A stretch of DNA of 64,000 nucleotides. Origin: a virus. The position numbers were made by a program, and so were the translations under genes. The stretch lies in the UHGV virus genome UHGV-1366603. One strand, given 5' to 3'. Each line of letters begins with the position of its first letter. The first letter of the stretch is position 1. This document shows positions 7,456 to 59,745 of this stretch, one piece after another. The notes below the pieces were generated by a model. The model was not told the DNA's origin. It searched no databases and saw only the letters and a program-made list of their open reading frames with translations.

Positions 7456-7474
7456 ACAGATATTATTTACGTGA
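7456..7474 (+). promoter_or_regulatory. conserved promoter-like motif AGATATTAT-N4-GTGA
   Basis: Exact 13-position motif in an intergenic region about 22 nt upstream of the 7496 start codon. Confidence 0.5.
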
Positions 7475-7495
7475 GACATTCTTTCGGAGTGAATT

Positions 7496-8044
7496 ATGTT
7501 TACAGGATTAATAGCACGTTTTAAGAAACGTCTACAGCAAAAGCGTTTACAGGCTCTCAGAGAGTCTCTAAGGCAGGAGTTTCATAAGAACATCCATAAC
7601 CCCTACGTAAGAACGTTTAGCGGCTTACGGTTGCTTACGTTGCCTATAAACGTAGATACCGAACCCTACCACCCCAGCTTACGTGGTAATCTCGAGTTAC
7701 GTATCGCTAATCTCGATATTCTTTACCAACGTCTTGCTTTTTATATCAACGAATACCAACGCACGATTAACGGCACCTCTATCGAGTGGTTATCATTGCC
7801 AGAGTCGTTAAGTAAACAAAAAGACTCGTCAGAAAACCGCTGGTTAGACACTTATTTTGGGACGTCCAATCCGGCGGTTGCCTATTATAAGCTAACGCAG
7901 TTACTCGAGCTTATCGATCCTTACGAAGATATTTTCTTAAAGCCCAAGACCGATGAAGATCGGGCATTGGTGAATCACTGTGCACATTTGTTTCGTGAAA
8001 TGGAGGTACTCATCGAACACTACCTTTTAAACCGACCTGTTTAA
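7496..8044 (+). CDS. hypothetical protein (182 aa)
   Basis: GGAG RBS; downstream of the conserved motif. Confidence 0.5.
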   Translation: MFTGLIARFKKRLQQKRLQALRESLRQEFHKNIHNPYVRTFSGLRLLTLPINVDTEPYHPSLRGNLELRIANLDILYQRLAFYINEYQRTINGTSIEWLSLPESLSKQKDSSENRWLDTYFGTSNPAVAYYKLTQLLELIDPYEDIFLKPKTDEDRALVNHCAHLFREMEVLIEHYLLNRPV

Positions 8045-8077
8045 TAACCAGTTAACCCCTTGTAACAAGGTGAAGTG

Positions 8078-8890
8078 ATGGATAACGAAGCAAAAGCAAA
8101 ACTGCAACGAGACGAAGACGAACGTGCGGGTAAACCGTTGCAAAAACTTTACTGGGAATATAAAACTCAGATTGGGTGGGAACCTAAAGATTATAAGCTT
8201 GCGGTTGCAAGACACATCCTATCCCCTGATTTCCGCACACGTTCGAAGGCCGTTCTCGAAGATCGAGTACAACGCATCTCAACGAAACTTACCTCGGGTA
8301 ACAACCGTGACTTACCGGTTGACCTTACGTGGCGAGGGTTCACGGAAGGGTTAGTGATTACCGGGGTAGAATCGTTGAGAATCTGTATAACGACTTACCG
8401 TGGACGTTTCCAGACAAAAACCATTTCTGAAGTCACCACACGAGTGCGTGACGATCTTATCCGCTACGATTTCGAGGACTGTAACGAGAAACCGACGGCC
8501 AGTGCCAGTACGGAACTGAATCGTTTCTTCCGAGATTGTGCGGGAACCGCAAAGACGATGGAGCACCCCCTTTCGAGACTCCTGTGGACAATTTTTGCGA
8601 ATATCAAAATGACTTCGGATTGGTGGCATCGACTTTCAACGAACTATGTTAATAATCCAGAGAACTGTCTTCCTATCTCTTCTAAACGCAATGACATGCG
8701 GCACAATATGCAGCACAACATGCGACTGAAAAAGAAGCTGTCTTGGAAATGGTTTATGAGGATACTCAAGGCGATTGATGTGAAGAAATTCGACATTCTG
8801 TTGACGTTAAAACGCAAAAACGACAACAAGATTTACGAAGTCGTTCACACGGTTGACCTCGAGGCTTATCAATTTCGGAGTACAGAATGA
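8078..8890 (+). CDS. hypothetical protein (270 aa)
   Basis: ATG at 8078 chosen over GTG at 8075; AAGG RBS. Confidence 0.5.
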   Translation: MDNEAKAKLQRDEDERAGKPLQKLYWEYKTQIGWEPKDYKLAVARHILSPDFRTRSKAVLEDRVQRISTKLTSGNNRDLPVDLTWRGFTEGLVITGVESLRICITTYRGRFQTKTISEVTTRVRDDLIRYDFEDCNEKPTASASTELNRFFRDCAGTAKTMEHPLSRLLWTIFANIKMTSDWWHRLSTNYVNNPENCLPISSKRNDMRHNMQHNMRLKKKLSWKWFMRILKAIDVKKFDILLTLKRKNDNKIYEVVHTVDLEAYQFRSTE

Positions 8891-10161
8891 AACTCGATCA
8901 GATAACCAGCCAGATTAACAAAGGTCAATCGGCTATCGACAACTCGGTTAATACCGCGAAGAATGCGGTTAACCGAGTACAGTCTACGGTGGAGAACGCC
9001 GAACGTGGCATTCAGAATACCGTCGATAAAGTCAGTCAGCTTTCCGATCGTGCTGGTGAAACCTTTAACAAACTCATCAGCGGTGGGAGCGAACTGACCT
9101 CAAAAATCGGTAACCTTTTCGGTGGTAGCGACATTGCAAGCGTAGGGGGTACCAAAACAGCGGGTAGCTCCACTTCCGGTGTTTCCCCAGGACAAAAAGT
9201 TCCTGGGTTTGCTTCTAACACTAAAGAGACACTGCCTGTTCTCGATCCGCAGAAGCGTGATGTTTCAGAACCTTTCAAAAAGGTTAATGAGGAAGGACTT
9301 AAAGCACTAGGGTATCTGTCACCGGGTGACTCAGGAAGTTTACTGGGTAAAGGTTGGAACAGTCTTTCGTCGCTTAGTGATTCTCTTCTGTCAGGAATCG
9401 GTACTGACTTCTCCTCCGTGAAGAAACGTCTCGAAGGAACGCTGAATATCGCAGGTCAACTGGCTAAGCTTCCTTCGGAAATCAGTCATGAAGTCAACAA
9501 CTTTATGTCTGAAGTCAACAGTATGCGTTACCAGATAACCTCGGTTATTGATGACGTACAACACACGTTTGACAGCTATAAAGACCTTGACGATTTCTTA
9601 GCCATCGACAACTTGATTAACAGTTTCAAAGGCAGCGACAGTTTTTCAGCGTTAGACATTAACACATCGTCTGCATTGATCTACGGTCTGTCTACGAAAC
9701 TTAACAGTTACGGACTGCCTGCAAAAATCGACCCGATGATTCAGGCTATTACTGACGATCAAGCAAAAGAGGCGCTTTACGGGGAGTTGATGATTCAAGC
9801 TGCTGCGACCGGTAACTTGGACTCAACGGAATATTACCTGGACAAACTTCAGGAAGGTCAGGGCAAACAGATTGCGGAAACCGTGATTCAAAACATCATG
9901 GCTAACTTGCGTGTAGAACCCGGTACGAGTTTTAGTACGTACGGGACACGAATGTTGGCGTTGTTTAAAGCACTGGATGCCAAATGGGATAAAACGAAAA
10001 ACGTTACTCCCGAAACTACCGAATTGAAACTCTATACTTACGCAGGCGCTAACGCGATACAAGCGCTGATGACCACCGAAAAACGTAACTACGTTTTAGC
10101 GGCAGGTAGTGTAAGTTATCAGTCTACCGATGAAATCGTGGAAGACTACTTTGCAATCTAA
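8887..10161 (+). CDS. hypothetical protein with predicted N-terminal coiled coil and Gly/Ser-rich region (424 aa)
   Basis: ATGA overlap with upstream gene; GGAG RBS. Confidence 0.5.
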   Translation: MKLDQITSQINKGQSAIDNSVNTAKNAVNRVQSTVENAERGIQNTVDKVSQLSDRAGETFNKLISGGSELTSKIGNLFGGSDIASVGGTKTAGSSTSGVSPGQKVPGFASNTKETLPVLDPQKRDVSEPFKKVNEEGLKALGYLSPGDSGSLLGKGWNSLSSLSDSLLSGIGTDFSSVKKRLEGTLNIAGQLAKLPSEISHEVNNFMSEVNSMRYQITSVIDDVQHTFDSYKDLDDFLAIDNLINSFKGSDSFSALDINTSSALIYGLSTKLNSYGLPAKIDPMIQAITDDQAKEALYGELMIQAAATGNLDSTEYYLDKLQEGQGKQIAETVIQNIMANLRVEPGTSFSTYGTRMLALFKALDAKWDKTKNVTPETTELKLYTYAGANAIQALMTTEKRNYVLAAGSVSYQSTDEIVEDYFAI

Positions 10162-10171
10162 GAGGCCGGAT

Positions 10172-13109: not shown

Positions 13110-13418
13110 ATGGAAAACTATTCGGGTTGGGCAATTTCGCAGTGCATTGGCTATTCTTTACGTTCTTTAGTGCGTACACTTTATAACAAAAACTCAGGTG
13201 AAGCTATTACACCACAGTTACTGGGCAAATTGGAAGTCGAAGTTAACCACAAATTAAAGCAGTTACTCGACAACCACGTAAGAACAATGCGTTGGGAGTT
13301 TTTGTTGCGTGGTAAGAAGCCGTCAATTACTGTTGTGGCAGAAGGCAGTGAAATTGTTCTCCAATCCAACGCAGACCTGTTTGAAATTTTAACTGAACTC
13401 GAAAAGGACAAAATCTGA
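13110..13418 (+). CDS. hypothetical protein (102 aa)
   Basis: AAAGGA RBS. Confidence 0.45.
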
Positions 13419-26411: not shown

Positions 26412-28037
26412 GTGAATAAACTTAATTGGGTTGACTTTTATCTGCTCAATGTAAACAAGTCTCTTGTGTCGCGATTACGACCCGTCACGACCACAGATAC
26501 TTTTCAAGGGTTGACAAAAAACTTTCACCCTGAAGGGTTATACTCCACGGAGATATTCGGTCTTACGGGAAGTGAAGCCCGAGACTCAACGTTTTCTTAC
26601 ATTGATATTAAATTAGATATCATTTCGCCGACGGTGTGTTTGGCGTTATTCCAACTAAAACAACTCTACGAAGAAATTTGTTCTGGAAAACGCTACGCAA
26701 CCTGGAGCGAAAAAGAAAAAGATTTTGAACCGGCTTTGCCTGGCGACGCTGGCGCAGATACCGGTTTTAACTTTTTCCTTAGTCACTACAACGACTTAAA
26801 ACCCGGACGTAACGAATCGTTACAACGTGACGAAACGGTGGATTTCTTCGAGAAGTTCCGTCCCGTGAGTCTTAGCCGCTATGTTCTCGTATTACCCGCA
26901 GGTTTACGTGATTTGGTGGTTAGACAAGACGGTAGGGAACAGGAAGAGGAAATCGGCGGGTTATATCGTCGTTTGATTTCTTTGGCCAGGGCGATTCCTG
27001 ACCGTGCCACACGGGTTGAATTAACGAACCCTGTGCGATGGAAACTCCAACAAACCTTTAACGAAATCTGGATGTACTTCTTTAACATCCAGGACGGTAA
27101 AGGGGGTTTCCAACGTCGTAAAGTGACGTCGCGTAAACTGATGAACGGGACACGTAACGTATTGTCCTCATTCTCCACAGGCTCTAAATGCATGGGGCGT
27201 GAGGATGCGATTCGACCAACTGACACCAAAATTGGTTTGTATCAGGGTCTGAAGGCGTTACTGCCCGTTGCGCAATACCAGATACGTGAACGTTACCTCG
27301 GTAACATTCGTGCTGGCGATGGCAACCTTTACGGCGTAAACACCAAAACGCTTAAACGCGAGTTCTTGGAAGTTGGGGGTCGAGTTTACGACACCTTTAC
27401 CACGGACGACGGTATCGAAACATTAATTAACCGAATGGAAGCTCGCGAGCTTCGTCATCAGCCGTTAATGATTAACGATACCCATTACGTCGCGTTAGTC
27501 TACCAAGACAACAAACATTTTAAGGTGTTCTACGATATCGATGAACTGCCTAAAACGTTTGACCGTAAAAACGTCCACGGAATGACCCTGGTAGAACTAC
27601 TCTACTTATCGGGTTACGATCTGTGGAACAACTATTTCGGTTTCGTTACACGTTATCCCGTCACCGGTCGAGGCTCGACGTACTCATCGACCATAAGATT
27701 GGAGACCACCACGTCATCTTTATACTTAAAAGAACTGGAAGATGACTGGGAGACTGAAAAGCCTCGCGGGGCAATCAGTTATCCTGACCGGTCGGTTCCA
27801 ACCTTTGTTGAGTCGATGGCACCGCACCCGTCACGACTGGGTGGCTTAGGGGGTGACTACGACGGTGACACCGGTTCACTTAACGCGCCTATGTCGGAAG
27901 AAGCGCTCGAGGAAAACCGTAACTGGGTACACTCGAAGAACTACTGGTTCGACTCTGACGGGAATTTCAAAATCAACCCCGTCAACAACGTGATTAAACG
28001 TGCGACGCAAGCGTTATTAAAGAATCCAAAAGGCTAA
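26412..28037 (+). CDS. RNA polymerase beta-prime-like subunit, N-terminal fragment (541 aa)
   Basis: GTG start with AGGAG RBS; segments parallel to bacterial beta-prime: EIFG, LVLPAGLRDLV...LYRRLI, GKGGFQRRKV, and DYDGD matching the NADFDGD catalytic loop near the C-terminus. Confidence 0.6.
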   Translation: MNKLNWVDFYLLNVNKSLVSRLRPVTTTDTFQGLTKNFHPEGLYSTEIFGLTGSEARDSTFSYIDIKLDIISPTVCLALFQLKQLYEEICSGKRYATWSEKEKDFEPALPGDAGADTGFNFFLSHYNDLKPGRNESLQRDETVDFFEKFRPVSLSRYVLVLPAGLRDLVVRQDGREQEEEIGGLYRRLISLARAIPDRATRVELTNPVRWKLQQTFNEIWMYFFNIQDGKGGFQRRKVTSRKLMNGTRNVLSSFSTGSKCMGREDAIRPTDTKIGLYQGLKALLPVAQYQIRERYLGNIRAGDGNLYGVNTKTLKREFLEVGGRVYDTFTTDDGIETLINRMEARELRHQPLMINDTHYVALVYQDNKHFKVFYDIDELPKTFDRKNVHGMTLVELLYLSGYDLWNNYFGFVTRYPVTGRGSTYSSTIRLETTTSSLYLKELEDDWETEKPRGAISYPDRSVPTFVESMAPHPSRLGGLGGDYDGDTGSLNAPMSEEALEENRNWVHSKNYWFDSDGNFKINPVNNVIKRATQALLKNPKG

Positions 28038-28040: not shown

Positions 28041-31000
28041 ATGCTGCTCATTAAACAGTTTAACCAACGCTTCTCTGTGCGTAAAACAGACGAGTTTGGT
28101 AATCCGAGGATTATCCCGCTCGAGAAGCTCCAGATACCACGAGGCTCCATACTGCACGTCGTGGATCTCGATCAGGTGGTCTTAGCGCCACCTGCTACGC
28201 TGGAAATCATCCAGCCGTTGGAAAAACCTGCACAAATTCGCCACCACTTTAAACTTCCCGAAGAAGGGATTAGTGGGCATCCACGTAACAAACCTGTGCA
28301 GGGGCAAGAACGTGCTATCTTTGCGTACCATCGCGCTAACCGTCCAATTCGTCGTCTGACTTCAGATGACCTGGTGCGTAAAGACTTAAAAGTTCTCCTT
28401 ATTGAGAACTACACACCGATGTTATCGCACTACTATTATCCAGACACTCAGTTAGCCTGGTACGATAGACTGCGTAATATCCAGCTGTTAATGACCAACC
28501 AGTTCAAATACGACACGCAAGAATACATGCGTCAGAACTATTTCGTGATTGAGCTGGGATCAACGTTACCGTCTTTCCAGAAGTTCCAAACGACGTATAA
28601 CGATCGCGTTAAAAGCAAGATTGAAAAGTTCCAGGACTTTAACCTGCTGTGGCTGTTGGAACTTTTCGCTTGGGCGTACGGTAAACAGTCCGATTCTCTG
28701 TTTGCGGGAATGGACTTAACGCAACTGTCTCGAATGAACTTCATCTTCACCCATAACGGCGGCTTTACGTCGATGAACATGGGTGTCGTGGAGAAGATGC
28801 GTAAATCGTCCGGTGGTCGTTTAAGTGACGACCAGATGGCCAGGATGTTCTATCGTACGTTAGTGCGTGTAATGACACAAGCACCGTCTAATGCGTACGA
28901 AGCTGAATTCCTGACACCGGAAGGTGATGAACGTATCTTTGTTAAAGACATCGAAGAAGAGACGGTTGACGTCGCTGACGATGGAGACGTTGTTAACGAC
29001 GCTGTGGTTGAATCGGATAACGCATTCGATGAAAAAGAAGACCTCGTTATTGAGGAACCGAAAGAAGACGTTAAGCCGACGACTATCGTTATCGAAAAAA
29101 CGATTGCTCACGATGACATTATCAAACAGGAAGCGCAGAAACTGGCTGAGGCGGGCCGCTTAAGCTCTAAAGCGTATCAGTTCCTGTCTGATTCGACTAA
29201 ACGTTTCGTTCAGTTACCGAACCCGTATAACCCGAAAGAGACTTACGGTGAAGCATTAACCATTCACGAAAAAGACATTGCCGTGAAAGCGGAACCGAAG
29301 AAAGTCCAGCGACTGGTTACGGATGAAGGTTGGGCAGAAAACGTCACCGACCAAATGGTGAAACAATACAACCAGACCATGATGAGTAAAGACGTACTGG
29401 CAGCTGTCGCCAGCTCGCAGCGTCTTGGTTTGGCTATTCACAACCACACGATCGAGAAAGAGATTTCCGTTACGGGAACTATCGAACACCACACCCTGCG
29501 TGTTCAACCGATTGGTGGTGAACCGACGACAGTGCGTTTCTCTATCCCTGGTCTAACCGAAGACGGTACCTGGGTAGCAAACGGTGTTGAATACACCATG
29601 CGTCGTCAGCGTGTAGACGTGCCGATTCGTAAGGTCGCCCCAGACACCGTAGCGTTAACGACCGCTTACGGTAAAAACTTCGTACGTCGCAGTGACAAAG
29701 TCGCAAACGACTACGGTCGCTGGTTAACGAACGCGATTATCACGCGTGCCGTAGACCCGACCAACACGGAGATCACTGACGCACGTCTCGCGAACGTTTT
29801 CGATCCTACTGAGAAACTTCCTCGTCAGTATACGGAGATTGCACGTCGTATCGCCAGCTTTAATGCAGGCGGGTATATGTGGAACTTCGATTATAAAGAA
29901 GCGGTTAACTTCTTTAATGACGAACAGCTTACTGACGCAAACAACGTTGAGATGTTGCCGGTTGCGAAACGTCCGCGTAGTGAAGTTATTGTGGTGATGG
30001 ATACCAAGTCCATGCTCTATACCGTTAAGGGTAAAGAGTGCACACCGCTGGGCACCATCTCTGAAGTGCTTGGTTTCAGTAACCAGAAAGCGCCAAGAGA
30101 GATGACCGAACTTTCACTGATGGGCAAATCGCTCTCACTGGGCTTCATCTTCTCGTTCTATTTAGGTCTGCAAGGGATGCTTAAGCATTTCGGCATTCAG
30201 TACGAAATCGTCCCTGTTGGCCAACGTGTAGATAAGAGCACGTACGATTCTATTATTCGTCTCCAGGACAGTAAGTTCCTGGTAACGTGTGATAACGATC
30301 AGCAACGAATGATTCTACACGGTCTGGATAAGTACCTGAAACACCTGGTAGCTTATACCGAGTCCGAAGTCGACCGCGAAGACATTTACCTGAACTTAAT
30401 ACGTGATGCAGATGGGCTAACTCCACGCTACATCAACGAGCTGAAACAAATGCGGGCCGCGTTTGTTGATGACATGCACGCACGTATCCTCAGGAAAATG
30501 GGTGAACCGGAAACCTTTATCGGGCTGTTGGAACGTTCTAACGAACTGTTACAAACCGACCACTCTTTGCCGGAGATTAACGGTGATGAGATGATGTTCT
30601 TAGGGAACCAACGTATTTCCTACCACATCTACACCGCGTTGGTCAGGGCGATGCGTAACTACAACAACGCACCGAACAGTAACCGTAAGTTCGAACTTAC
30701 TCAGGACATGATTTGGGGTGCCATTAACTCCGACCCGTCTGTTCTGTTAGCGCCGGGTGCTAACCCTATCCAGTCGATTAAAGAGAAAGACGTTATCACC
30801 ATGGGGGGCACGGGTGGCCGTAACCGTAAAACAATGGTTTATCACACGCGTGAGTTCCAACCGAGTGACCTGGGTATTGTATCCGGTAACACGGTGGATA
30901 ACGGTGACGTAGGTATTACTGCTTTCGCCACTAACAACCCACGTTTTGATACCGTTGACGGCACCACCTATAAACGGGATGAAAAGAAACTGAAGCCGAG

Positions 31001-32207
31001 TGACACTCTGTCATTTATTGACGGTCTCGTACCGGATACCCTGATGGATGACGCTAAACGTCAAAACTTCGTTGGGATTCAGTTAGGTTCTGCCACCAGT
31101 TGCAACGGCGCTACCACTACCCCTTATCGTACCGAACAGGAGAAATTTGTCGCTCACCGTACGTCGGTGAAACACGCACGCGTTATTGATAAAGCAGGTA
31201 AAATCACCGGTCTGTCTAAAGACCATATCGAAATTACGTACGAAGATGGAAGTAAAGAAGCCTTTCCTCTAGGGCGCTGGTTCGGCCCCCACGAAGGTAC
31301 CTTCTATCCGCACACCCTGGTGACTCGCTGGAAAGCCGGTGACAAACTCCCGGCCGGGGCAGTCATCACCTATAACGAGCAACACTTTGAACCCGATATC
31401 TACGACCCTACTCAGGTTTCCTGGAAAAACGGGGTGCTGGCTACCGTCGCTCTAATCGAAGCTGAAGAAGTAATCGAAGACTCCAATGCTATTTCTGAAC
31501 GGTTCGCGAAGAAAATGGTTGGGCAGGTTACTAAGCTGAAAGAAGTGGTGATTAACAGCAACCAGATGCTCCTGGAAATCGTTAACGAAGGGGAACACGT
31601 TGACGTCGACACAATCCTATGCACATTTACTGACGACCTTACGGGGGATATGAGTACCTTTAGTAAGGAAGCAGCACAAACGTTGCAAAGTTTAAGTTCG
31701 TACGCGCCTCGTGCTGGGGTTCGTGGTATCGTGGATAAAATCGAAGTCGTGTATCACGGTGAAACCGAAGACATGACGCCTTCACTGGCAGAACTGGTAC
31801 GTAAATACGATCGCATTCGTCGTAAAGCAGCATTGGCTGTTAATCGTGGCGATCCGGTATCAGGGAGTGTTAATGGGGATTACCGTGTAGAGGGTGTACC
31901 GTTAGCCTTTAACTCGCTTTGTGTTCGATTCTTTATTACGCACGAAGTTGAAATGGCCGCAGCGGATAAGATGGTTATTGCTAACCAGCTGAAAACCACT
32001 GTACAAGAAGTGATGTACGGGGAAAACAAAACAGAAGATGGCGACGACATTGACATTTTGTTCGGTCGTGATTCTGTCGACGCACGTATCGTAGGTTCTA
32101 TCCAACGAATCGGTACCGCAAATGCTGTGGGTGAACAAGCAGGGATTCTTATCGGTCGTATTCTCGACGGCGAGTCCGTGCCTGAGTTACCAGCGACACT
32201 TAAATAA
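28041..32207 (+). CDS. putative RNA polymerase beta-like subunit fragment with long N-terminal extension (1,388 aa)
   Basis: Adjacent to the beta-prime fragment; region ITMGGTGGRNRK...VDNGDVGITAFATNNP loosely parallels beta GPGGLTRERAGFEVRD...PEGPNIGLINSL; weak call. Confidence 0.4.
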   Translation: MLLIKQFNQRFSVRKTDEFGNPRIIPLEKLQIPRGSILHVVDLDQVVLAPPATLEIIQPLEKPAQIRHHFKLPEEGISGHPRNKPVQGQERAIFAYHRANRPIRRLTSDDLVRKDLKVLLIENYTPMLSHYYYPDTQLAWYDRLRNIQLLMTNQFKYDTQEYMRQNYFVIELGSTLPSFQKFQTTYNDRVKSKIEKFQDFNLLWLLELFAWAYGKQSDSLFAGMDLTQLSRMNFIFTHNGGFTSMNMGVVEKMRKSSGGRLSDDQMARMFYRTLVRVMTQAPSNAYEAEFLTPEGDERIFVKDIEEETVDVADDGDVVNDAVVESDNAFDEKEDLVIEEPKEDVKPTTIVIEKTIAHDDIIKQEAQKLAEAGRLSSKAYQFLSDSTKRFVQLPNPYNPKETYGEALTIHEKDIAVKAEPKKVQRLVTDEGWAENVTDQMVKQYNQTMMSKDVLAAVASSQRLGLAIHNHTIEKEISVTGTIEHHTLRVQPIGGEPTTVRFSIPGLTEDGTWVANGVEYTMRRQRVDVPIRKVAPDTVALTTAYGKNFVRRSDKVANDYGRWLTNAIITRAVDPTNTEITDARLANVFDPTEKLPRQYTEIARRIASFNAGGYMWNFDYKEAVNFFNDEQLTDANNVEMLPVAKRPRSEVIVVMDTKSMLYTVKGKECTPLGTISEVLGFSNQKAPREMTELSLMGKSLSLGFIFSFYLGLQGMLKHFGIQYEIVPVGQRVDKSTYDSIIRLQDSKFLVTCDNDQQRMILHGLDKYLKHLVAYTESEVDREDIYLNLIRDADGLTPRYINELKQMRAAFVDDMHARILRKMGEPETFIGLLERSNELLQTDHSLPEINGDEMMFLGNQRISYHIYTALVRAMRNYNNAPNSNRKFELTQDMIWGAINSDPSVLLAPGANPIQSIKEKDVITMGGTGGRNRKTMVYHTREFQPSDLGIVSGNTVDNGDVGITAFATNNPRFDTVDGTTYKRDEKKLKPSDTLSFIDGLVPDTLMDDAKRQNFVGIQLGSATSCNGATTTPYRTEQEKFVAHRTSVKHARVIDKAGKITGLSKDHIEITYEDGSKEAFPLGRWFGPHEGTFYPHTLVTRWKAGDKLPAGAVITYNEQHFEPDIYDPTQVSWKNGVLATVALIEAEEVIEDSNAISERFAKKMVGQVTKLKEVVINSNQMLLEIVNEGEHVDVDTILCTFTDDLTGDMSTFSKEAAQTLQSLSSYAPRAGVRGIVDKIEVVYHGETEDMTPSLAELVRKYDRIRRKAALAVNRGDPVSGSVNGDYRVEGVPLAFNSLCVRFFITHEVEMAAADKMVIANQLKTTVQEVMYGENKTEDGDDIDILFGRDSVDARIVGSIQRIGTANAVGEQAGILIGRILDGESVPELPATLK

Positions 32208-34005: not shown

Positions 34006-34022
34006 TGCAATAGGAGGTGATC

Positions 34023-34751
34023 GTGAGTGCGATTGAAACAGCCCGTCGTGATCCCACTAAGATTCATGCGGACTTGGTAAATAACGGCACGGTCACCACT
34101 ACCAAAGGGGGATGTTACATTTACATCCCCGTTGGGTTTGTGGCGAAAGAGTTGGCGGTTATTTCTTCTACGGTAACGATTGTAGGTATTTTTGCTATCT
34201 CAACGGACCGTAAAACTTACGGGGTTTCCAGTGTCACAACACTGATTGAGATTACCCCAACGGCGTTTGAAGAGATTGACGTCTTTGGCGTCCCTTATTA
34301 CGAATTTCGTTTTGACCCCGGCACAGTGGTTTTCCCCAACCGCAATTTACAGGTGTTGTCCGCACCGATATACAACATTGCGTCGTATATTTACGACTTT
34401 GGTAACCGTCCTTTCTGGTTTACCGCTTACGACGATGCTGAACTGTTAGCACCGGATAAGGTAAAGCGATGGAACGGTTTTACTGTATTTGCCGATCAGA
34501 TTACCGCTGACGTTTATGCTGCACACACGCAGCGTAAAGTGGGTGATCCAAAAACGTTTTTCCGTTATACCTTGAAAAAAGACAGTGACTTAAACAACCC
34601 TGTCCAATTCATCCCACTACGTAGTGGGTCTCTTAACAAAACGTCGAGACTGGCGAAGCTTGCTGACGTAGAACTGAAACGTGGTATTCGTTCTGCGCTA
34701 CAAGTTGACCCGGTACGTGCCGAACCGCTCGAAGATTTGTTTATGAGGTAA
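34023..34751 (+). CDS. hypothetical protein (~242 aa)
   Basis: GTG at 34023 chosen for spacing to AGGAGG RBS; start uncertain (34017 possible). Confidence 0.45.
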   Translation: MSAIETARRDPTKIHADLVNNGTVTTTKGGCYIYIPVGFVAKELAVISSTVTIVGIFAISTDRKTYGVSSVTTLIEITPTAFEEIDVFGVPYYEFRFDPGTVVFPNRNLQVLSAPIYNIASYIYDFGNRPFWFTAYDDAELLAPDKVKRWNGFTVFADQITADVYAAHTQRKVGDPKTFFRYTLKKDSDLNNPVQFIPLRSGSLNKTSRLAKLADVELKRGIRSALQVDPVRAEPLEDLFMR

Positions 34752-37190: not shown

Positions 37191-37233
37191 CGGGTAGTCT
37201 ATCCAATGGATAGACTACCCTACTTATTTTTTA
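37191..37233 (+). terminator. intrinsic terminator with 13-bp stem
   Basis: GGGTAGTCTATCC-AAT-GGATAGACTACCC followed by a T-run. Confidence 0.65.
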
Positions 37234-37258
37234 ACCCTATTGAAAAATATCTTAGATA

Positions 37259-37274
37259 TATATTACTTAGGTGA
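37259..37274 (+). promoter_or_regulatory. variant of the conserved promoter-like motif (ATATTAC-N4-GTGA)
   Basis: TATATTAC-TTAG-GTGA about 53 nt upstream of the 37327 start. Confidence 0.35.
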
Positions 37275-37326
37275 GCGTTGTAGAATTACACGCTATTCGA
37301 CTTGTTAACCTAAAGGAGTATTAAAG

Positions 37327-37716
37327 ATGAAAAACGAATTATTCAAAGACCCGTTTGTTGTACTAATGATTTCTACTCGTGCAATCATGCGTCCAGATGA
37401 CCTGGAACGATTAATTACAGATGTGGCTTATCTGTGCGAGCAACGTGACAAACTACTGAACAAAGAATGTCCTTGCGAAAGCATCGGACGTCTGGTGACT
37501 ATCTTTCGTAATCCCGACTGGCGTAGAAACAATGAATTGTCTGATATCTTGAGTGTTTCGCTTGCAAAACTGGCGATGCTGTTCTCTCTCGATAAAGATC
37601 TTAAACAGTGTCTTTCCACATCGGAACGCATCGAACTATTTGAAGGTATTCGGGAATCCGTTAAACGAATTAACGCCATCAGAAACAATTGGATGCTTTC
37701 TAGCGTAGGTAGCTAA
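37327..37716 (+). CDS. hypothetical protein (129 aa)
   Basis: AAAGGAG RBS. Confidence 0.5.
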   Translation: MKNELFKDPFVVLMISTRAIMRPDDLERLITDVAYLCEQRDKLLNKECPCESIGRLVTIFRNPDWRRNNELSDILSVSLAKLAMLFSLDKDLKQCLSTSERIELFEGIRESVKRINAIRNNWMLSSVGS

Positions 37717-52018: not shown

Positions 52019-52033
52019 CAGTGAACCTCGAAA

Positions 52034-52052
52034 TTATTACGGATAGATATTA
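52034..52052 (+). promoter_or_regulatory. conserved promoter-like motif AGATATTAT-N4-GTGA
   Basis: Exact motif (AGATATTAT at 52036-52044, GTGA at 52049-52052) about 39 nt upstream of the 52091 start. Confidence 0.5.
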
Positions 52053-52090
52053 TCCTAGTGAGAGTCTTATTACCTAAAGGAGTTTTTACC

Positions 52091-53215
52091 ATGAGAAATT
52101 ATCTGCGCAAACCCGCTTGGCACAAGATGTTGCGTGAAGGTACCATCGACCGCGAACAGCAAGTCAAGATGTGGGTGCTTCCTCACGGCGTAATTTGTGA
52201 CCTGGTCAGAGTCGGTGGGATGGACATCCTGCGTAACGGTACCTACGACGCCGTCAACTCGTTCTTAGCACGAGAGCTGGCGGAAGCAGGGTTACAAGGC
52301 GAGGTGTTATTTTACACCACCCGTGTTATCCCACAAACGCTGTCTAAGTGGTTAACGTACTGGCTGTCTAGTGACCCTGACGCATCAGACCCCGAACTGA
52401 GTTCGGTAACGATTACCACACTAGGCCAGTATCCCACGAAACCCTTACCGTTCCAGGTGAACGTTGTTGAGCCGCTAATCGTAAAAGCTGGTGACGTGTT
52501 TGACATGATTAAAGTCAAATCCCGTAACCAAGCCGTTTCCCAGTTCATCATCGAAACGGGTGAACACACATTCCGATTAGAACCTGTCCGTAAAACCGAT
52601 GCGACGCTTCTGGCCGTAACGGATTACGGAATCGTTTGTCGTTCTTCCGAAGGACATACCTTCCTGTGCACGATACTCTCACGACGTATTCAGGCACAGT
52701 TAGAGCACTACAAACTTTCCCTGGAAGACATCGTCGGTACGACGTTACGTATCGAATACACGATGTACACGGAAGGGAATCGGCTGTGTAATTACAAGTC
52801 CCCTATCGCTTACCGAGCGTTAGCGCTGGACAACATGGGAGACTGGGTCTCAACGACATACGAAGGGCCTTCCCCCTTCAAAACCATTCCAACACAACGA
52901 CCGGCGTTGTTGACCGTCACCCGCTGTAACCGTGCCGAGATTTTCGAGGAAGAGGGTGTGATTTCCGGTTACGAACGTGAAACAGGGTTAACGCTTTTCC
53001 GCTTCCGACGGGGTGCGGAGTATGGTCGCTACGCAGCGGTGTTCGAACGAGACGGTAAGCAAGAAACCTGGCTTTTCGAATCGGATTTCTCCGTTGAGGT
53101 GATTGACCCTGAGGGCTTTGTGGCTTCAGTGGGGAGTCAGATTTTCTACGCCACGGGCTACAGCCTGTTGGACGTAAAACTGCACTACCCTCAGAAAGAA
53201 CAGGTCTGTCTGTAA
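52091..53215 (+). CDS. hypothetical protein (375 aa)
   Basis: ATG 52091 with AAAGGAG RBS preferred over the upstream ORF-track start. Confidence 0.5.
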   Translation: MRNYLRKPAWHKMLREGTIDREQQVKMWVLPHGVICDLVRVGGMDILRNGTYDAVNSFLARELAEAGLQGEVLFYTTRVIPQTLSKWLTYWLSSDPDASDPELSSVTITTLGQYPTKPLPFQVNVVEPLIVKAGDVFDMIKVKSRNQAVSQFIIETGEHTFRLEPVRKTDATLLAVTDYGIVCRSSEGHTFLCTILSRRIQAQLEHYKLSLEDIVGTTLRIEYTMYTEGNRLCNYKSPIAYRALALDNMGDWVSTTYEGPSPFKTIPTQRPALLTVTRCNRAEIFEEEGVISGYERETGLTLFRFRRGAEYGRYAAVFERDGKQETWLFESDFSVEVIDPEGFVASVGSQIFYATGYSLLDVKLHYPQKEQVCL

Positions 53216-53760: not shown

Positions 53761-54260
53761 GCTTGGTTTTTTAAATACTCTCGAGAGACCTCAAGTCTCT
53801 CGGATCGATCTTAAAAATTTAACTCTCTCAAAAACCTGATCTCAAGATCTCTTCCTTATACGCGTGTGCGTGCGCACACGTATAGTATAATATATTTATT
53901 TATAAATATATTATTCCTTTAGGATCAAAATAATAATACCTTTAGGTATTATTTAATTATATATTTTAATATATATTTATTTTAATAAATATAAATATAT
54001 TAAATAAATATATTAATAATATAATTATTATATATAATATATATTATATATAAATATATATAAAACGCGCGCGATCCTTATTATGAGATCTGATCTCGCT
54101 CTGACCCCCAGTGAGGGGGTGGGGATCGGTGAGCGGTATTTTCCGGAAAAACCGAAAATCGTACCCGGGGTAATTCGCCAGGGTAAAATCCCCACCTGGG
54201 GGATCGGGTAGGGGGTACCCTTCCGGGGGAGATCCTGAACACCTGACCAGGGGGTAAAAC
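53761..54260. other. gene-free AT-rich tract flanked by a GATC cluster, palindromes and G/C tracts; candidate replication origin or packaging/terminal region
   Basis: About 180 bp of near-pure A/T (53881-54060); 11 GATC sites counted in ~440 bp; inverted repeats such as GTGTGCG-TG-CGCACAC and AATAATACC-TTT-AGGTATTATT. Confidence 0.45.
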
Positions 54261-54299
54261 CCCATTCCCCTTTTTCGAACGTTAAAACCCTATGGTATG

Positions 54300-54912
54300 T
54301 TCGGAGGATTTGCGTGGGGTTGATTTACAACCACGAAGATTTTTCGGAGTTCAGGTATTACTGCTCACAGCTCAACACGATTACTGTCTGCGATGATTCA
54401 GCAGAGCTCGAACCCCCTGGTTGGTTATTGGCCAGGGGTGTTTTTTCAAGTGCATGGATTTTGGTTCACCGTGTACTGGGAAAAACAAAACGTTCGGCCT
54501 AACACTGGCGATTTGTTTTACTATGGGGTTTCCGTGACTTCGGATAAAAACCTCAGGGGTTGGTAAACCCCACGAATTCAGGTGCTCGGTACCGTTCCCG
54601 CGACTTACGAAGTTTGGGGAAAGCCGCGCTATCAGCGACGCGTGGCCGACATGAGAAAATCCGAGTGAACCGTGGCAGCCTCTGGGGGCGACGTTGGCGA
54701 GAGGTCCGTAGAACTTACCTGCGGGCAGCCGACGGTGGGATGCGTCCCCAGAGGTGCGGCCAGAATCCGAATTACGACGTTGCGTCGAAACAACCCTGCT
54801 CCAGGTAGCGCTGGCAGTGTGATGTCCTCTAGCTTGACGGCTCGCAAAGACGAGAGGGGTGCGTACTCCCGTTGAGAAACGCCGGTACGCAGCTGAATTA
54901 ATTTTTTACGGA
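54300..54912 (+). ncRNA. candidate structured non-coding RNA region (unclassified)
   Basis: GC-rich segment unlike flanking DNA; many nested inverted repeats; internal terminator-like hairpin at 54413-54446; only Arg-rich or TTG/GTG-start ORFs. Confidence 0.3.
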
Positions 54913-55299: not shown

Positions 55300-55800
55300 A
55301 TGACTACGATTGTTTTTGACGGAAAGACGTTAGCTTGCGATGGCCAAGTCACCGTGGAAGAGCGTAGTGCTGCCACGCAATACCGTAAGATTCACACGCC
55401 GCCTGAGGGTACGACGTGGAAGCTTTTGGGTGAAGACGTGAAAGCAATTGGTTTGGCAGGTGATGTCGCCGCATTGCAATCCGTGCGTCAAGAACTCACG
55501 CTTGAACGTTTCGGCGGTATCGAACGGGGTGGGGTTCGTTTTGAAACGACGTATCCCGAACAGATTGAATTTATCGTACTTGCTGTTTTGACAGACGGGC
55601 GCGTTATCGACGCCTCGAAGTGCAAAGACAACAAATACGCCAGTTACGTGTTTGTAGAACCGCCGTATGCGATAGGCTCAGGTGCTCACTATGCCCTGGG
55701 TGCATTAGGCGCAGGCGTTGACGCCCCCACTGCGGTGGAAGTGGCGAAACGTTATGACCTGTACAGCGGCGGTCAGACGCAAACGCTTAAGCTGTTTTGA
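55300..55800 (+). CDS. HslV-like (proteasome beta-type, Ntn-hydrolase) peptidase
   Basis: N-terminus MTTIVFDGK...ACDGQVT parallels E. coli HslV MTTIVSVRR...AGDGQAT; later YAIGSGAHYALGA parallels IAIGSGGPYAQAA; GAGG RBS. Confidence 0.65.
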   Translation: MTTIVFDGKTLACDGQVTVEERSAATQYRKIHTPPEGTTWKLLGEDVKAIGLAGDVAALQSVRQELTLERFGGIERGGVRFETTYPEQIEFIVLAVLTDGRVIDASKCKDNKYASYVFVEPPYAIGSGAHYALGALGAGVDAPTAVEVAKRYDLYSGGQTQTLKLF

Positions 55801-55809
55801 AGTATTTAG

Positions 55810-55882
55810 ACCATTGAAGTTAGAGGAATTAACACCCGACTAATAATCGGTTATTTCGCAGGTTCGAATCCTGCCATTGGTC
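55810..55882 (+). tRNA. tRNA-like gene, anticodon uncertain
   Basis: Canonical T-arm GCAGG-TTCGAAT-CCTGC; acceptor stem with one mismatch; D-stem GTTA/TAAC; 73 nt; anticodon loop register ambiguous. Confidence 0.4.
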
Positions 55883-55989
55883 GCCCAGATTAGAACAATC
55901 GAACAAGAGTTACAAACTCGTCAGCCTTCAACTGAGCGTCGGTTGTTCTGATAACTTCTGCTCTTGCTCACGGGTAGAAAGCTCCTTAA

Positions 55990-57285: not shown

Positions 57286-57326
57286 GTACCTACCTCCGAA
57301 AGGAGGTAGGTATATTCTTTTTTATC
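57286..57326 (+). terminator. intrinsic terminator, repeated hairpin family
   Basis: GTACCTACCTCC-GAAA-GGAGGTAGGTA followed by T-run. Confidence 0.65.
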
Positions 57327-57340
57327 GCAAAATTTTAGAG

Positions 57341-57359
57341 ATAGATATTATTTTAGTGA
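57341..57359 (+). promoter_or_regulatory. conserved promoter-like motif AGATATTAT-N4-GTGA
   Basis: Exact motif (57343-57351, GTGA 57356-57359) about 46 nt upstream of the 57405 start. Confidence 0.5.
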
Positions 57360-57404
57360 ATGTTCGCGTGAAACGTTTACTTCGACTTTTTAGGAACTGA
57401 TAAA

Positions 57405-57845
57405 ATGAAATTAGATGCGATTGAAGGATTAATGGGTATGGGTTATTCATTCGAAGAAGCGGCGGTTATTCGTCCGTTTCTGTCACGTCATTTCTCCGTG
57501 TGGCAAGCGTTACCTGAAGATGGGCCAACCGGTAAGTTAGTAGAACGATTCGTTGAGCGTGTGCTGAATCGAAATCGGAATGAATTTAGTTTACGGTGGG
57601 CGGACGGGAAAGAGCGTAAGCACCTAAACCCTAATCCGTGGTGTATGTTGGTGTTTCGTTGTGACGGTGAAGAATTTACGTTCCCGGCTATTGAATTTGT
57701 AAGACGGTACGGTTTAGCGATTTACACCGAGTTAGGAACAAACGGGGCAGGTCGGGTATTAGTTTACGACAGAGGTGAGTTACGCATTAAAACGAAGCAG
57801 TTAGCAGAACTCTACCACGAACGACACGTTGCCGAATTAGTATAA
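57405..57845 (+). CDS. hypothetical protein (146 aa)
   Basis: AGGA RBS; downstream of the conserved motif. Confidence 0.5.
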   Translation: MKLDAIEGLMGMGYSFEEAAVIRPFLSRHFSVWQALPEDGPTGKLVERFVERVLNRNRNEFSLRWADGKERKHLNPNPWCMLVFRCDGEEFTFPAIEFVRRYGLAIYTELGTNGAGRVLVYDRGELRIKTKQLAELYHERHVAELV

Positions 57846-58341: not shown

Positions 58342-58360
58342 GTTATAGTGGGAGAGAAAA

Positions 58361-58741
58361 ATGAATACTACACTGCGTCCACTGGACGTGATTTTGGTGC
58401 ACCCGGACGCATTGAGTAAAATCACTCTACGGTGCGAGTTAGACAAAAAACTTATCACGTCTTTAGAGTGGGGGTTTGTATTACATCCCGACGAATACAA
58501 AAATACACGCTACAGCGATATTGCTGAAGGTTCAGTCATCGACTGGGGTGTACCTGAGGGTTACGATGATGTCGTGCAATATATGTCAGAGATGACGGTT
58601 CCGTACAGCTTACCGATTGCTGGCCCTGCGGAGAATATCATTTCTTTACGTCGTCTTGTGAATGCCCAACCTGAAAACATTCGCAACGGTGTGGCGTGGA
58701 CAACAGGAACCGCATGTCATTTAAAAAATATGTTGCAGTGA
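58361..58741 (+). CDS. hypothetical protein (126 aa)
   Basis: GGGAGAG RBS. Confidence 0.5.
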   Translation: MNTTLRPLDVILVHPDALSKITLRCELDKKLITSLEWGFVLHPDEYKNTRYSDIAEGSVIDWGVPEGYDDVVQYMSEMTVPYSLPIAGPAENIISLRRLVNAQPENIRNGVAWTTGTACHLKNMLQ

Positions 58742-58752
58742 AAACGATAAGA

Positions 58753-58794
58753 CCCACTACTCGAATGGAGTAGTGGGTAGGTTTTCTTTTTTTG
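58753..58794. terminator. bidirectional terminator
   Basis: CCCACTACTC-GAATG-GAGTAGTGGG followed by T-run. Confidence 0.65.
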
Positions 58795-59607
58795 TTAAGA
58801 TTTGAAACGACCGCCAGACATGTAGTTGTAACGGTTGCCTGCGTCGTCGTTGTGAACCATCGCACGCTGTAGACGTGGTAGGTTGTCGTTGAACATTTCC
58901 CCGGCGTCGGAATAGCCCTCGATAACGTTTTTAAACGCCCCGAACTCCATACCGTTTTCAAGATGACCTGAATCCATATCGAAAATCATTTTGTTGTAGA
59001 TGACCTGTTTAGTGGCGTACAGTGCCATATCTGCAACTACCGGATAGAAGGCCGGTTTGATTTCGTTTAAGTCATCAGACAGTGCAAACTTAACTTGAAG
59101 CTTAGTTGCGTAGACGAACATCCCAGGGTCTTTGATTTTGATGGTGTTCGGTCCAAGTTTCTTAACTTCGGGTGAGGAAATACGTGGCATTGCCGATTGA
59201 CTATCCACTACTTGTTGCGTGGAGGCCAGTACCCCTGAAGTTGCCCCGTCTAAATAAGACCCTGCTGGGGGTAAGGTGTACGCTTGTCCTGCCACTGGTG
59301 TTACGGCGATATGGACGTCCAGTATCGGTCTACCCCCGGTTTTAATGTCATCCAGGTAATAGATACGTGAGTAGTAATCCTGGGTGTCGTTCTCAAAAGG
59401 TAAACCTTGGAGGTCGATTTCGGTGTATTGACCTAGACGGGAAACTTCCGGGATGAGGTATTCTTTAAATACCTTTTCAGTAATCTCGTTATCCAGGGAT
59501 GACGCAACACCATAGTAGCGAAGATTTTTAGGTACAAACGCAGCGCGAAGAATCGGTTCTGGAATCTCTCGACGTATTCTCCGTAGACAGTAGTCGATGA
59601 CACTCAT
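58795..59607 (-). CDS. hypothetical protein (270 aa)
   Basis: AGGAG RBS on minus strand. Confidence 0.5.
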   Translation of the reverse strand: MSVIDYCLRRIRREIPEPILRAAFVPKNLRYYGVASSLDNEITEKVFKEYLIPEVSRLGQYTEIDLQGLPFENDTQDYYSRIYYLDDIKTGGRPILDVHIAVTPVAGQAYTLPPAGSYLDGATSGVLASTQQVVDSQSAMPRISSPEVKKLGPNTIKIKDPGMFVYATKLQVKFALSDDLNEIKPAFYPVVADMALYATKQVIYNKMIFDMDSGHLENGMEFGAFKNVIEGYSDAGEMFNDNLPRLQRAMVHNDDAGNRYNYMSGGRFKS

Positions 59608-59726
59608 TGTGTGCTCCTGTTAGCTCTGTAAAACGGTTCATAGGATCGGGTAATGGGTAACTACGACATTACTAAAAAATACACTCCACGCCCTTCCTGT
59701 GCGCACTATACTCGAACTTTTTTTGT

Positions 59727-59745
59727 ATAGATATTATCTCTGTGA
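59727..59745 (+). promoter_or_regulatory. conserved promoter-like motif AGATATTAT-N4-GTGA
   Basis: Exact motif (59729-59737, GTGA 59742-59745) about 29 nt upstream of the 59774 start. Confidence 0.5.

Follow-up and report, generated by a model that had tools for sequence, protein, structure and literature searches.

Five intergenic sites that are probably early-class promoters in an uncultivated SPN3US-like jumbo phage

The analysed window, a stretch of 64,000 nt from the virus genome UHGV-1366603, is syntenic with the genome of the Salmonella jumbo phage SPN3US, and its source is a related uncultivated jumbo phage. The RNA polymerase (RNAP) subunit genes noted in a preliminary description of this DNA were found to encode orthologues of four of the five subunits of the SPN3US virion RNA polymerase (vRNAP), namely gp218, gp240, gp241, and gp244 (Table 1); the gene of the gp240 orthologue is syntenic with SPN3US 212357-213970. 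The virion location of this multisubunit enzyme has been shown for SPN3US (PMC5105663).

The window also contains five copies of a promoter-like motif, numbered 1 to 5 in Table 1. The preliminary description stated that the motif marks the 7496 gene, the 52091 gene, and the small-gene blocks starting at 57405 and 59774, and each of these is indeed the first gene after a site. The 7496 gene heads a long plus-strand block syntenic with SPN3US 191.6-200 kb, within which a thymidylate synthase counterpart is located at 13418-14452, and the 59774 gene is syntenic with SPN3US 7435-7755. None of the five genes that directly follow the sites has an assigned function. Promoters 1, 3, and 5 are located in divergent intergenic regions, their upstream minus-strand neighbours being the genes at 6959-7423, 50642-52018, and 58795-59607, respectively. 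Promoters 2 and 4 lie directly behind intrinsic terminators, and the former terminator shows two compensatory base-pair changes among relatives.

Table 1. Features associated with the five promoter-like sites in the 64,000-nt window
Feature	Coordinates	Strand	Details
vRNAP subunit, beta C-terminal fragment (SPN3US gp218 orthologue)	5618..6286	+	85% identity; role PMC5105663
Probable early-type promoter 1	7436..7476	+	core AGATATTAT-TTAC-GTGA 7458-7474; G of GTG 7471; 37.9 bits
First gene after promoter 1	7496..8044	+	182 aa, phrog_8650, no assigned function
vRNAP subunit, beta' N-terminal fragment (SPN3US gp240 orthologue)	26412..28037	+	phrog_2986, E 1.6e-235; role PMC5105663
vRNAP subunit, beta N-terminal fragment (SPN3US gp241 orthologue)	28041..32207	+	77% identity over 1,400 aa; role PMC5105663
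Candidate vRNAP subunit, beta' C-terminal fragment (SPN3US gp244 orthologue)	34017..34751	+	87% identity; PMC5105663
Intrinsic terminator directly 5' of promoter 2	37192..37232	+	13-bp stem, then T run; closes preceding operon
Probable early-type promoter 2 (variant)	37236..37276	+	TATATATTAC-TTAG-GTGAG; core 37258-37274; G of GTG 37271
Promoter 2 leader	37274..37302	+	stem-loop 37274-37294 (AGCGT.GTA / TAC.ACGCT); TCGACT box 37297-37302 (+27 from G of GTG)
First gene after promoter 2	37327..37716	+	129 aa, phrog_27024, no assigned function
Probable early-type promoter 3	52023..52063	+	core AGATATTAT-CCTA-GTGA 52045-52061; G of GTG 52058; 34.7 bits
First gene after promoter 3	52091..53215	+	374 aa, phrog_8136, no assigned function
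Intrinsic terminator directly 5' of promoter 4	57286..57323	+	12-bp stem, then ATTCTTTTTT
Probable early-type promoter 4	57321..57361	+	core AGATATTAT-TTTA-GTGA 57343-57359; G of GTG 57356; 32.9 bits
Promoter 4 leader	57356..57387	+	stem-loop 57356-57380 with G-U pairs; TCGACT box 57382-57387 (+27)
First gene after promoter 4	57405..57845	+	146 aa, phrog_9548, no assigned function; starts small-gene block
Probable early-type promoter 5	59707..59747	+	core AGATATTAT-CTCT-GTGA 59729-59745; G of GTG 59742; 32.7 bits
First gene after promoter 5	59774..60097	+	107 aa, phrog_9874, no assigned function; starts small-gene block

An exact search of the window for AGATATTATNNNNGTGA revealed four matches, all on the plus strand and all of the form AGATATTAT-N4-GTGA (promoters 1, 3, 4, and 5). 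The previously reported count of exactly four copies and three of the four positions were correct, while promoter 3 had been placed 9 nt too low, at 52036-52052 instead of 52045-52061. The fifth, variant site was also present as described; it was recovered on the plus strand by a search allowing two mismatches and reads ATATATTACTTAGGTGA, that is, ATATATTAC-TTAG-GTGA. No exact match appeared in 100 dinucleotide-preserving shuffles, in agreement with the expectation of far fewer than one chance match, and the relaxed core ATATTAY-N4-GTG occurs five times on the plus strand of the window and never on the minus strand. All five sites are wholly non-coding; given a non-coding share of ~5% of the window, the chance of this is ~4e-7. 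The motif ends 22, 30, 46, and 29 nt before the start codon at promoters 1, 3, 4, and 5, respectively, so that the plus-strand, intergenic placement 22-46 nt upstream of a start codon holds for all exact copies; for the variant this distance is 53 nt.

A promoter model of 59 positions was built from 16 sites of the window and SPN3US. The consensus of their alignment is TTCnAAAAnATTTCAGATAKATATTAYCTAGGTGAG, with 11 invariant columns, and the motif spans ~40 nt (…TTCnAAAAnATTTCAGATAKATATTAY-N4-GTGAG), including conserved TTTCAGAT immediately 5' of the core and TTCnAAAA farther 5'. A motif search addressing bias in position and strand had been proposed in the preliminary description; with this model, 27 matches were found in the window and SPN3US together, every one of them on the plus strand. 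No further copies were detected on either strand of the window at E<=10, and the structural operons of the window (tail fibre, sheath, terminase, and vRNAP genes) contain none. The highest model score in the window, 43.4 bits, was obtained for promoter 2, which carries the exact phiKZ core TATATTAC.

The SPN3US genome contains 11 strict ATATTAY-N4-GTG sites, all on the plus strand and intergenic before plus-strand genes, and ~11 weaker model matches, also plus-strand and co-oriented with genes. All five window sites have an SPN3US counterpart at the matching position. That of promoter 1 (191580-191617) reads CAGACAGATATTAT-CTAT-CCGA; promoter 2 corresponds to a site at 223283 and has counterparts in three IMG/VR relatives, two of them reading ATATTTTAC; the SPN3US-type counterpart of promoter 3 is weaker (ATATGTTAT-CATA-CTGA, 13.7 bits); and those of promoters 4 and 5 are located at 4433 and 7396, the latter having an identical core and similar flanks. 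In relatives with an 89-99% identical protein downstream of promoter 3, the core and leader are near-identical or identical despite divergence of the neighbouring coding DNA. In more distant IMG/VR relatives the core of promoter 4 has decayed to AGATGTTAC-CTGT-ATGA, the downstream gene being 93-94% identical. Thus, the motif described as strictly conserved is so inside the window but not across relatives, where orthologous sites show ATTTTA or ATGTTA for ATATTA and CCG, CTG, or ATG for GTG. Some of the "invariant" positions are therefore variable among orthologues; either variation is tolerated by the polymerase, or single promoters are gained and lost. A core-perfect copy, AGATATTAT-CTTA-CCGA, is located directly 5' of gp34 and gp35, genes of the non-virion RNAP of SPN3US (for the role of gp35, see PMC5105663), which fits the phiKZ scheme of the vRNAP expressing the second polymerase.

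Predicted early promoters of phages N1M2 (…TTTCARRYAKATATTATYWAAGTGWA) and OBP have been published, together with consensus sequences for 201phi2-1 and phiKZ (PMC7058600). The window motif matches the N1M2 and OBP predictions and contains the phiKZ early core; the N1M2 sequence and TTTCAGATAKATATTAY-N4-GTGAG of the window are nearly equal, and one copy of TTTCAGATAGATATTAC-TAAA-GTG was found directly in the OBP genome. Like the window sites, the N1M2 and OBP promoters are intergenic, are present in many copies per genome (31 in N1M2), and stand at operon starts. These phages, however, belong to other genera and infect other hosts. Their promoters, too, rest on prediction only, and neither a 5' stem-loop nor a TCGACT box follows the single OBP copy that was examined.

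In phiKZ and 201phi2-1, an AT-rich element lies ~10 nt 5' of the mapped early start sites (PMC7598289, PMC8244752, PMC11512511). These promoters, attributed to the vRNAP, resemble those of the window in the core TATATTAC ~10 nt 5' of the start site, putative in our case, in positions around -20 and -30 that are T-rich or conserved, and, for the 201phi2-1 consensus, in the terminal GTG; however, four window sites read GATATTAT in place of TATATTAC, and the flanking consensus differs in detail. The window phage displays the following characters of the phiKZ-like (Chimalliviridae) early class: an AT-rich core of ~8-10 nt (TATATTAC or KATATTAY), added upstream conservation (T-rich beyond ~-19, with the -20 and -30 regions; cf. 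PMC8244752, PMC11512511), many intergenic copies facing a downstream operon (5/5 in the window; the strict and weaker sites in SPN3US), and a virion-packaged multisubunit RNAP, represented by the four orthologues. The Bacillus phage AR9, a jumbo phage with virion and non-virion multisubunit RNAPs, also has a conserved motif before early operons (PMC5312081), but its motif differs in sequence, its DNA contains uracil, and it is only a distant relative. As of 2017 no vRNAP, that of phiKZ included, had been purified (PMC5312081).

Altogether, we assign the five sites to the early class of promoters, in a jumbo phage of SPN3US type related to phiKZ, with a probability of about 0.85. The earlier proposal of a phage-specific promoter class of a phiKZ-like multisubunit RNAP gains support from the synteny and vRNAP orthologues, the match to N1M2, OBP, and phiKZ, the position relative to the start sites mapped in phiKZ and 201phi2-1, and the fact that only one of five sites passes a sigma-70 scan. 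The observation holds but is largely unsurprising, because a nearly identical consensus has already been published, and the promoter class described, for related phages. The start sites, early timing, and polymerase used are those that we infer by homology.

The sigma-70 scan concerns the possibility that the sites are read by the host RNAP right after injection, as are the early promoters of T4 or T5. Indeed, TATTAT agrees with the -10 hexamer TATAAT at five of six positions, and the A/T-rich upstream region, another feature shared with T4 early promoters, offers the -35-like hexamers TTGAAA, TTCAAA, and TCGAA. However, with TTGACA-like and TATAAT-like hexamers at a spacing of 16-18 nt, only promoter 1 passed, and weakly (TTTTCA-17-TATTAT, 9/12), while the sites at 37258, 52045, 57343, and 59729 failed in spacing and -35 sequence, the best -35-like hexamers being merely ~15 nt from TATTAT. 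Sigma-70-like matches in the 50-64 kb region are at chance level (21 observed versus 19.3 expected). Half of the SPN3US sites read TATTAC, a variant incompatible with sigma-70 since the critical final T of the -10 hexamer is absent, and the best-conserved positions, AKA 5' of the hexamer and GTGAG 3' of it, lie outside the sigma-70 contacts. Furthermore, the motif is common to phages of Pseudomonas, Klebsiella, Erwinia, and Salmonella, and phiKZ development is independent of the host RNAP (PMC7598289, PMC13282480). Recognition by the host enzyme therefore appears improbable.

We regard as equally improbable that the sites are later-class promoters read by the non-virion RNAP instead of the virion enzyme. 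In favour of this reading, the operon following promoter 1 reaches nucleotide-metabolism genes, possibly middle ones, and some genes of phiKZ have a middle promoter in addition to an early one (PMC8244752). However, the phiKZ middle and late motifs are different (weak AT-rich/TACT near -22 to -24; TATG at the start; PMC7598289, PMC8244752). The window motif contains the early core TATATTAC, and in SPN3US one copy stands before genes of the non-virion RNAP, which need to be expressed before that enzyme exists.

Mobile early-promoter/stem-loop cassettes occur in T4-type phages. It is very improbable that the sites represent such a repeated intergenic cassette, spread by recombination or duplication, or a binding site of a phage regulator, without promoter activity of their own. 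Sites of the promoter 2 type do share a similar stretch of ~95 nt, which reaches from the promoter up to and including the ribosome-binding site and recurs at multiple loci within a genome and in different genera, and the terminator-then-promoter order resembles the T4-type layout. However, the sites are not palindromic, always face the downstream gene, and keep a constant spacing from the start codon region. They also stay in place at orthologous positions although their flanks diverge, and in phiKZ and 201phi2-1 the homologous motifs fall at mapped start sites. Mobility would not exclude promoter function.

For early-class promoters, the following mechanism could be proposed. The multisubunit vRNAP, four of whose five subunit genes lie in the window, would be injected together with the DNA and would recognise the ~40-nt element, which consists of an A/T-rich part with TTCnAAA at about -35, TTTCAGAT at about -20, and the core AKATATTAY, whose centre is close to -10. 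The start of transcription would lie ~5-8 nt past the core, on the conserved GTGAG or close to it, and host sigma-70 would not be needed. Each promoter would open a plus-strand operon of small genes without assigned function or of nucleotide-metabolism/replication genes; being located just past intrinsic terminators, the promoters at 37258 and 57343 would restart transcription between operons.

These five well-supported early-promoter calls and the 59-position model, available for the uncultivated 225-kb (224.8-kb) phage and the cultivated SPN3US, permit annotation of early operons without transcriptomics. The conservation of the early-promoter sequence across phages of Pseudomonas, Klebsiella, Erwinia, and Salmonella and the window phage implies a conserved DNA-recognition surface in the vRNAP; no published account of its promoter-recognition mechanism was found in a literature search.

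In the clade of SPN3US and Erwinia phages, many such promoters precede a presumably transcribed 5' stem-loop, the arms of which covary, and a TCGACT box; both elements are present in the window at promoters 2 and 4. The box usually starts 27 nt past the G of GTG, and this position is kept despite changes in stem-loop size. Substitutions that relatives show in the promoter 4 leader maintain pairing only if G-U pairs are allowed, which points to a sense-strand RNA structure. In phage N4, too, early promoters are served by an RNA polymerase that the virion injects, and a hairpin belongs to their conserved architecture. That polymerase, however, has a single subunit, and the N4 hairpin is located upstream of the start site, in DNA, whereas the window stem-loop lies downstream of the putative start and, with its G-U pairs, behaves like a structure in RNA.

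A scan of the whole window at Rfam gathering thresholds gave no match to the leader and detected only a tRNA (55810-55882), and a literature search found no published description of the stem-loop and TCGACT leader, which seems to be unreported. One could tentatively hypothesise, although we are doubtful, that the early promoter of this clade is the front of a ~80-nt composite cassette comprising promoter, 5'-end stem-loop, and TCGACT box, perhaps a signal on vRNAP transcripts. Possible roles of the leader are promoter-proximal pausing or antitermination, protection from 5'-end-dependent decay, or a tag for a phage protein, and the stem-loop with the box at +27 offers a mutable target for studying the control and stability of early jumbo-phage transcripts. 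Matches to the promoter-plus-leader cassette were obtained by blastn in 64 phage records, mostly in unannotated DNA; those inspected belong to jumbo phages of Salmonella, Erwinia, and Cronobacter.

An exact search of the window for AGATATTAT-N4-GTGA returned the four copies claimed in the preliminary description, all on the plus strand; three of the coordinates given there were right, while the second, 52036, was 9 nt too low. The fifth, variant site was also recovered when two mismatches were allowed, reading ATATATTAC-TTAG-GTGA at 37258-37274. Dinucleotide-preserving shuffles yielded exact matches in 0 of 100 cases, and of the relaxed core ATATTAY-N4-GTG the window has five copies on its plus strand and none on its minus strand. 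All five sites, named here by the start of the core (7458, 37258, 52045, 57343 and 59729), lie wholly inside non-coding DNA, which a generous ORF-based gene call puts at about 5% of the window (chance about 4e-7). Their placement before start codons likewise held for every site, with the motif ending 22-53 nt upstream of an ATG that carries a Shine-Dalgarno sequence. Sites 7458, 52045 and 59729 are located in divergent intergenic regions, and an intrinsic terminator immediately precedes 37258 and 57343.

Megablast related the window to Salmonella jumbo phage SPN3US and Erwinia jumbo phages, although in conserved genes the nucleotide identity is only about 76%. Its gene order corresponds to that of SPN3US between about 183 kb and about 12 kb, a segment that spans the ends of the deposited sequence. 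The IMG/VR contig IMGVR_UViG_3300045988_078609 (224,831 bp) is about 99% identical to the window at the three genes checked, and further relatives show about 89% protein identity; no close relative was found in the INPHARED collection of deposited phage genomes. SPN3US carries 11 exact ATATTAY-N4-GTG sites, all intergenic and 40-150 nt upstream of plus-strand genes, and all five window sites have positional counterparts in this phage (see table).

Coordinates of the predicted promoter sites, leader elements and virion RNA polymerase genes
Feature	Position	Strand	Details
Exact motif matches, window	7458-7474, 52045-52061, 57343-57359, 59729-59745	+	exact search
Strict sites, SPN3US	4433, 7396, 15620, 23816, 56300, 65419, 72690, 94245, 113992, 165693, 223283	+	exact ATATTAY-N4-GTG
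Positional counterparts, window/SPN3US	7458/191580, 37258/223283, 52045/238166, 57343/4433, 59729/7396		all five sites
Stem-loop and box, site 37258	37274-37294, 37297-37302	+	
Stem-loop and box, site 57343	57356-57380, 57382-57387	+	
Virion RNAP subunit orthologue	5618-6286		SPN3US gp218, 85% identity
Virion RNAP subunit orthologue	34017-34751		SPN3US gp244, 87% identity
Virion RNAP subunit orthologue	28041-32207		SPN3US gp241, 77% identity
Virion RNAP subunit orthologue	26412-28037		SPN3US gp240, PHROG match and synteny

In an ungapped alignment of these 16 sites, 11 columns are invariant; the consensus, ATTCnAAAAnATTTCAGATAKATATTAYCTAGGTGAG, spans about 40 nt. A sequence-only model built from the same sites was searched against the window and SPN3US, and all 27 hits, including 11 weaker SPN3US copies, fell on the plus strand; in the window, no copy beyond the known five appeared at E<=10, and the structural operons had none. 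Among the weaker hits, SPN3US 191580 reads …CAGACAGATATTAT-CTAT-CCGA, and another is 238166, the counterpart of 52045, for which the SPN3US-type phage EC001 reads ATATGTTAT-CATA-CTGA. Two of the weaker SPN3US copies (L002, 28948-28990, and L005, 41580-41625) combine a perfect AGATATTAT core with CCGAG in place of GTGAG, one of them directly upstream of the genes of the non-virion polymerase, gp34/gp35, and the other being the counterpart of 7458; GTG is therefore not obligatory. The aligned sites form two sub-types differing at two positions that change together: TATATATTAC-YTAG-GTGAG, comprising window site 37258 and seven SPN3US sites, and TAGATATTAT-N4-GTGA, comprising four window and three SPN3US sites, plus TTGATATTAT at SPN3US 15620. 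One SPN3US site, 4433, is of mixed sub-type (TAGATATTAC). Scanning IMG/VR for the pattern GATAKATATTAYNNNNGTGA produced at least 120 single hits in unrelated small contigs and was discarded as uninformative, since by our own estimate a similar number is expected by chance in a collection of this size.

In closer relatives that share 89% identity in the protein encoded downstream of site 52045, the promoter and leader of this site are near-identical, whereas the neighbouring coding DNA diverges. Two relatives have ATATTTTAC at site 37258, where the upstream terminator shows two compensatory pair changes among relatives. More distant relatives, in which the gene downstream of site 57343 is 93-94% identical, have AGATGTTAC-CTGT-ATGA at this site, a degraded core that suggests tolerance or decay. 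Among members of the clade, ATATTA can have A, T or G as its third base, and GTG can be replaced by CCG, CTG or ATG; the motif, initially described as strictly conserved, is so within the window but not in the clade as a whole.

Recognition of the five sites as sigma-70 promoters by the host polymerase is very improbable. A sigma-70 consensus scan does call site 7458 (TTTTCA-17-TATTAT, 9/12), but none of 37258, 52045, 57343 and 59729, and sigma-70-like hits in 50-64 kb occur at the chance level (21 observed versus 19.3 expected). Moreover, C is the final base of half the SPN3US sites, so that the last T of the -10 hexamer is lost, and the best-conserved flanks are not sigma-70 contacts.

A phage-specific promoter class served by a phage RNA polymerase, as originally proposed, is supported by the comparative evidence and by the literature. 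The predicted promoters listed for other jumbo phages are TBYAWWWWWTTTCARRYAKATATTATYWAAGTGWA for N1M2 (31 sites), …TTTYARRYAKATATTATYWWADTG for OBP, …TTTRARR_BTATATTACDWHDGTG for 201phi2-1 and TATATTAC for phiKZ (PMC7058600, Table 2). The element in the window is the same one. A copy found in the OBP genome, TTTCAGATAGATATTAC-TAAA-GTG, lies in a divergent intergenic region adjoining the terminase gene. According to reviews and transcriptome papers, all jumbo phages that encode an RNAP carry a motif of this kind upstream of their early operons, and it is attributed to the virion RNAP; where early start sites have been mapped, its centre falls near -10, and further positions are conserved near -20 and -30 (PMC7598289, PMC8244752, PMC11512511, PMC10914365, PMC13282480). 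The promoter class is thus already described in the literature; only the stem-loop of the leader and the +27 box might be new. In the papers searched, no mapping of transcripts from SPN3US-like phages was found, and no purification of a virion RNAP had been achieved as of 2017 (PMC5312081).

The RNAP subunit genes noted earlier are indeed present: the window, whose gene content includes tail fibre, sheath, terminase and RNAP 'beta' proteins, encodes orthologues of four of the five subunits that make up the virion RNAP in SPN3US. The roles and virion location of the SPN3US subunits are known from mass spectrometry and amber mutants (PMC5105663), and the orthology therefore identifies the window proteins as subunits of the virion enzyme. 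The large subunit had no match among PDB sequences. By homology, we infer the start site, timing and enzyme as follows: the injected virion RNAP would recognise the element of about 40 nt and begin transcription at or near GTGAG, giving leaders of 25-56 nt if the G of GTG is approximately +1, and would then read plus-strand operons of small genes of unknown function or of nucleotide-metabolism and replication genes. The PHROG matches of window genes that follow the promoters were all labelled 'unknown function', and Pfam gave nothing significant for genes 7496, 52091 and 8887, all hits of the last being below the cut-off. Identification of the SPN3US genes following 15620 and 72690 as nuclear-shell protein and tubulin PhuZ was rejected, as neither PDB sequences nor Pfam gave a match. 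Gene 57405-57845 (146 aa) covers positions 6-146 of a 326-position PHROG profile and appears shortened or split in this phage; its SPN3US counterpart, 4501-5448, encodes 315 aa.

At most sites, a stem-loop of 6-8 bp with arm sequences that vary between sites directly follows GTG. Positions +1 to +32 of the 16 sites fold more stably than shuffled sequences (mean z -1.6) and also more stably than 292 other window segments that begin with GTGA (Mann-Whitney p 5.5e-4). For 23 distinct leaders, the sense strand folds at -6.0 versus -4.1 kcal/mol for the antisense (Wilcoxon p 0.0012), a gap that G-U pairs account for and that speaks for a structure formed in RNA. In the orthologues of SPN3US 94245 from STsAS, phiEaH2 and Asesino, stems are kept and loops are free to vary, with one A-U to C-G double change, and the stem substitutions at 57343 in relatives all retain pairing via G-U. 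Eight same-register leaders had 98% paired cells, compared with 79% for shuffled sequences and 29-54% for slid controls, with both sides changed in 5 of 7 pairs, counts that overstate the case because the set was picked by its own folds and four members are orthologues of one site. RNAalifold found no consensus structure in a MAFFT alignment of 13 leaders, as the stem-loop registers differ by 1-3 nt; the case therefore rests on the folds against shuffles, the sense/antisense asymmetry and the pair count in the eight leaders.

Downstream of the stem-loop, YCGACY is present in 9 of the 16 sites (binomial tail about 1e-9), starting in six of the nine at +27 from the G of GTG, a start shared by STsAS, phiEaH2, Asesino and most leaders of close relatives despite varying stem-loop size. 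The loose pattern AWYCGACYW occurs at the chance level across the window; the significance of the box comes solely from where it lies relative to these promoters. Stem-loop and TCGACT box, almost always present in the TATATATTAC-YTAG-GTGAG sub-type, were found at SPN3US 4433, 56300, 65419, 94245, 113992 and 223283 (loci L002-L006) and at window sites 37258 and 57343, whereas the one OBP copy inspected has neither; the leaders of 7458, 52045 and 59729 are short and have no box. The whole cassette of promoter, stem-loop and box (window 37232-37326) matched 64 phage records from Salmonella, Erwinia, Cronobacter, Escherichia and Proteus by blastn, mostly in unannotated DNA, and the arrangement of stem-loop and TCGACT is kept in Seoulvirus and Erskinevirus phages. 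No Rfam family matched it. Candidate functions of the leader are mRNA 5'-end protection, a promoter-proximal pause or antitermination signal, and a protein-binding tag. In some SPN3US early leaders (L005, 17490-17625 and 15693-15783), a second, terminator-like GC-rich hairpin with a T run lies between the 5' stem-loop and the box, resembling the premature termination reported in 5' UTRs of phiKZ and 201phi2-1.

Several other features of the window were observed. The palindrome GTGCGCAC with flanking ATACTCGAA at 59699-59706, about 25-40 nt upstream of the 59729 core and kept at SPN3US 7364-7371, may be a regulator site or a promoter part of the divergent gene 58795-59607 (minus strand). Between 50000 and 64000, hairpins resembling intrinsic terminators occur at about double the frequency expected from shuffles (28 versus 14.3), and several are bidirectional (53224-53243, 58752-58778 and 63759-63782). 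A single tRNA gene at 55809-55885, just after 55300-55800, was identified by ARAGORN as tRNA-Ile with the anticodon AAT (Rfam tRNA, 40.1 bits), an anticodon unusual among bacterial tRNA-Ile genes. The gene-poor region 53479-54313, which corresponds to the ends of SPN3US as deposited, includes about 190 nt of almost pure A/T (53880-54065), rich in overlapping direct and inverted repeats. This stretch may act in DNA unwinding or as an origin of replication, or may be close to the genome terminus; the sigma-70 scan found several perfect TATAAT hits on its minus strand.
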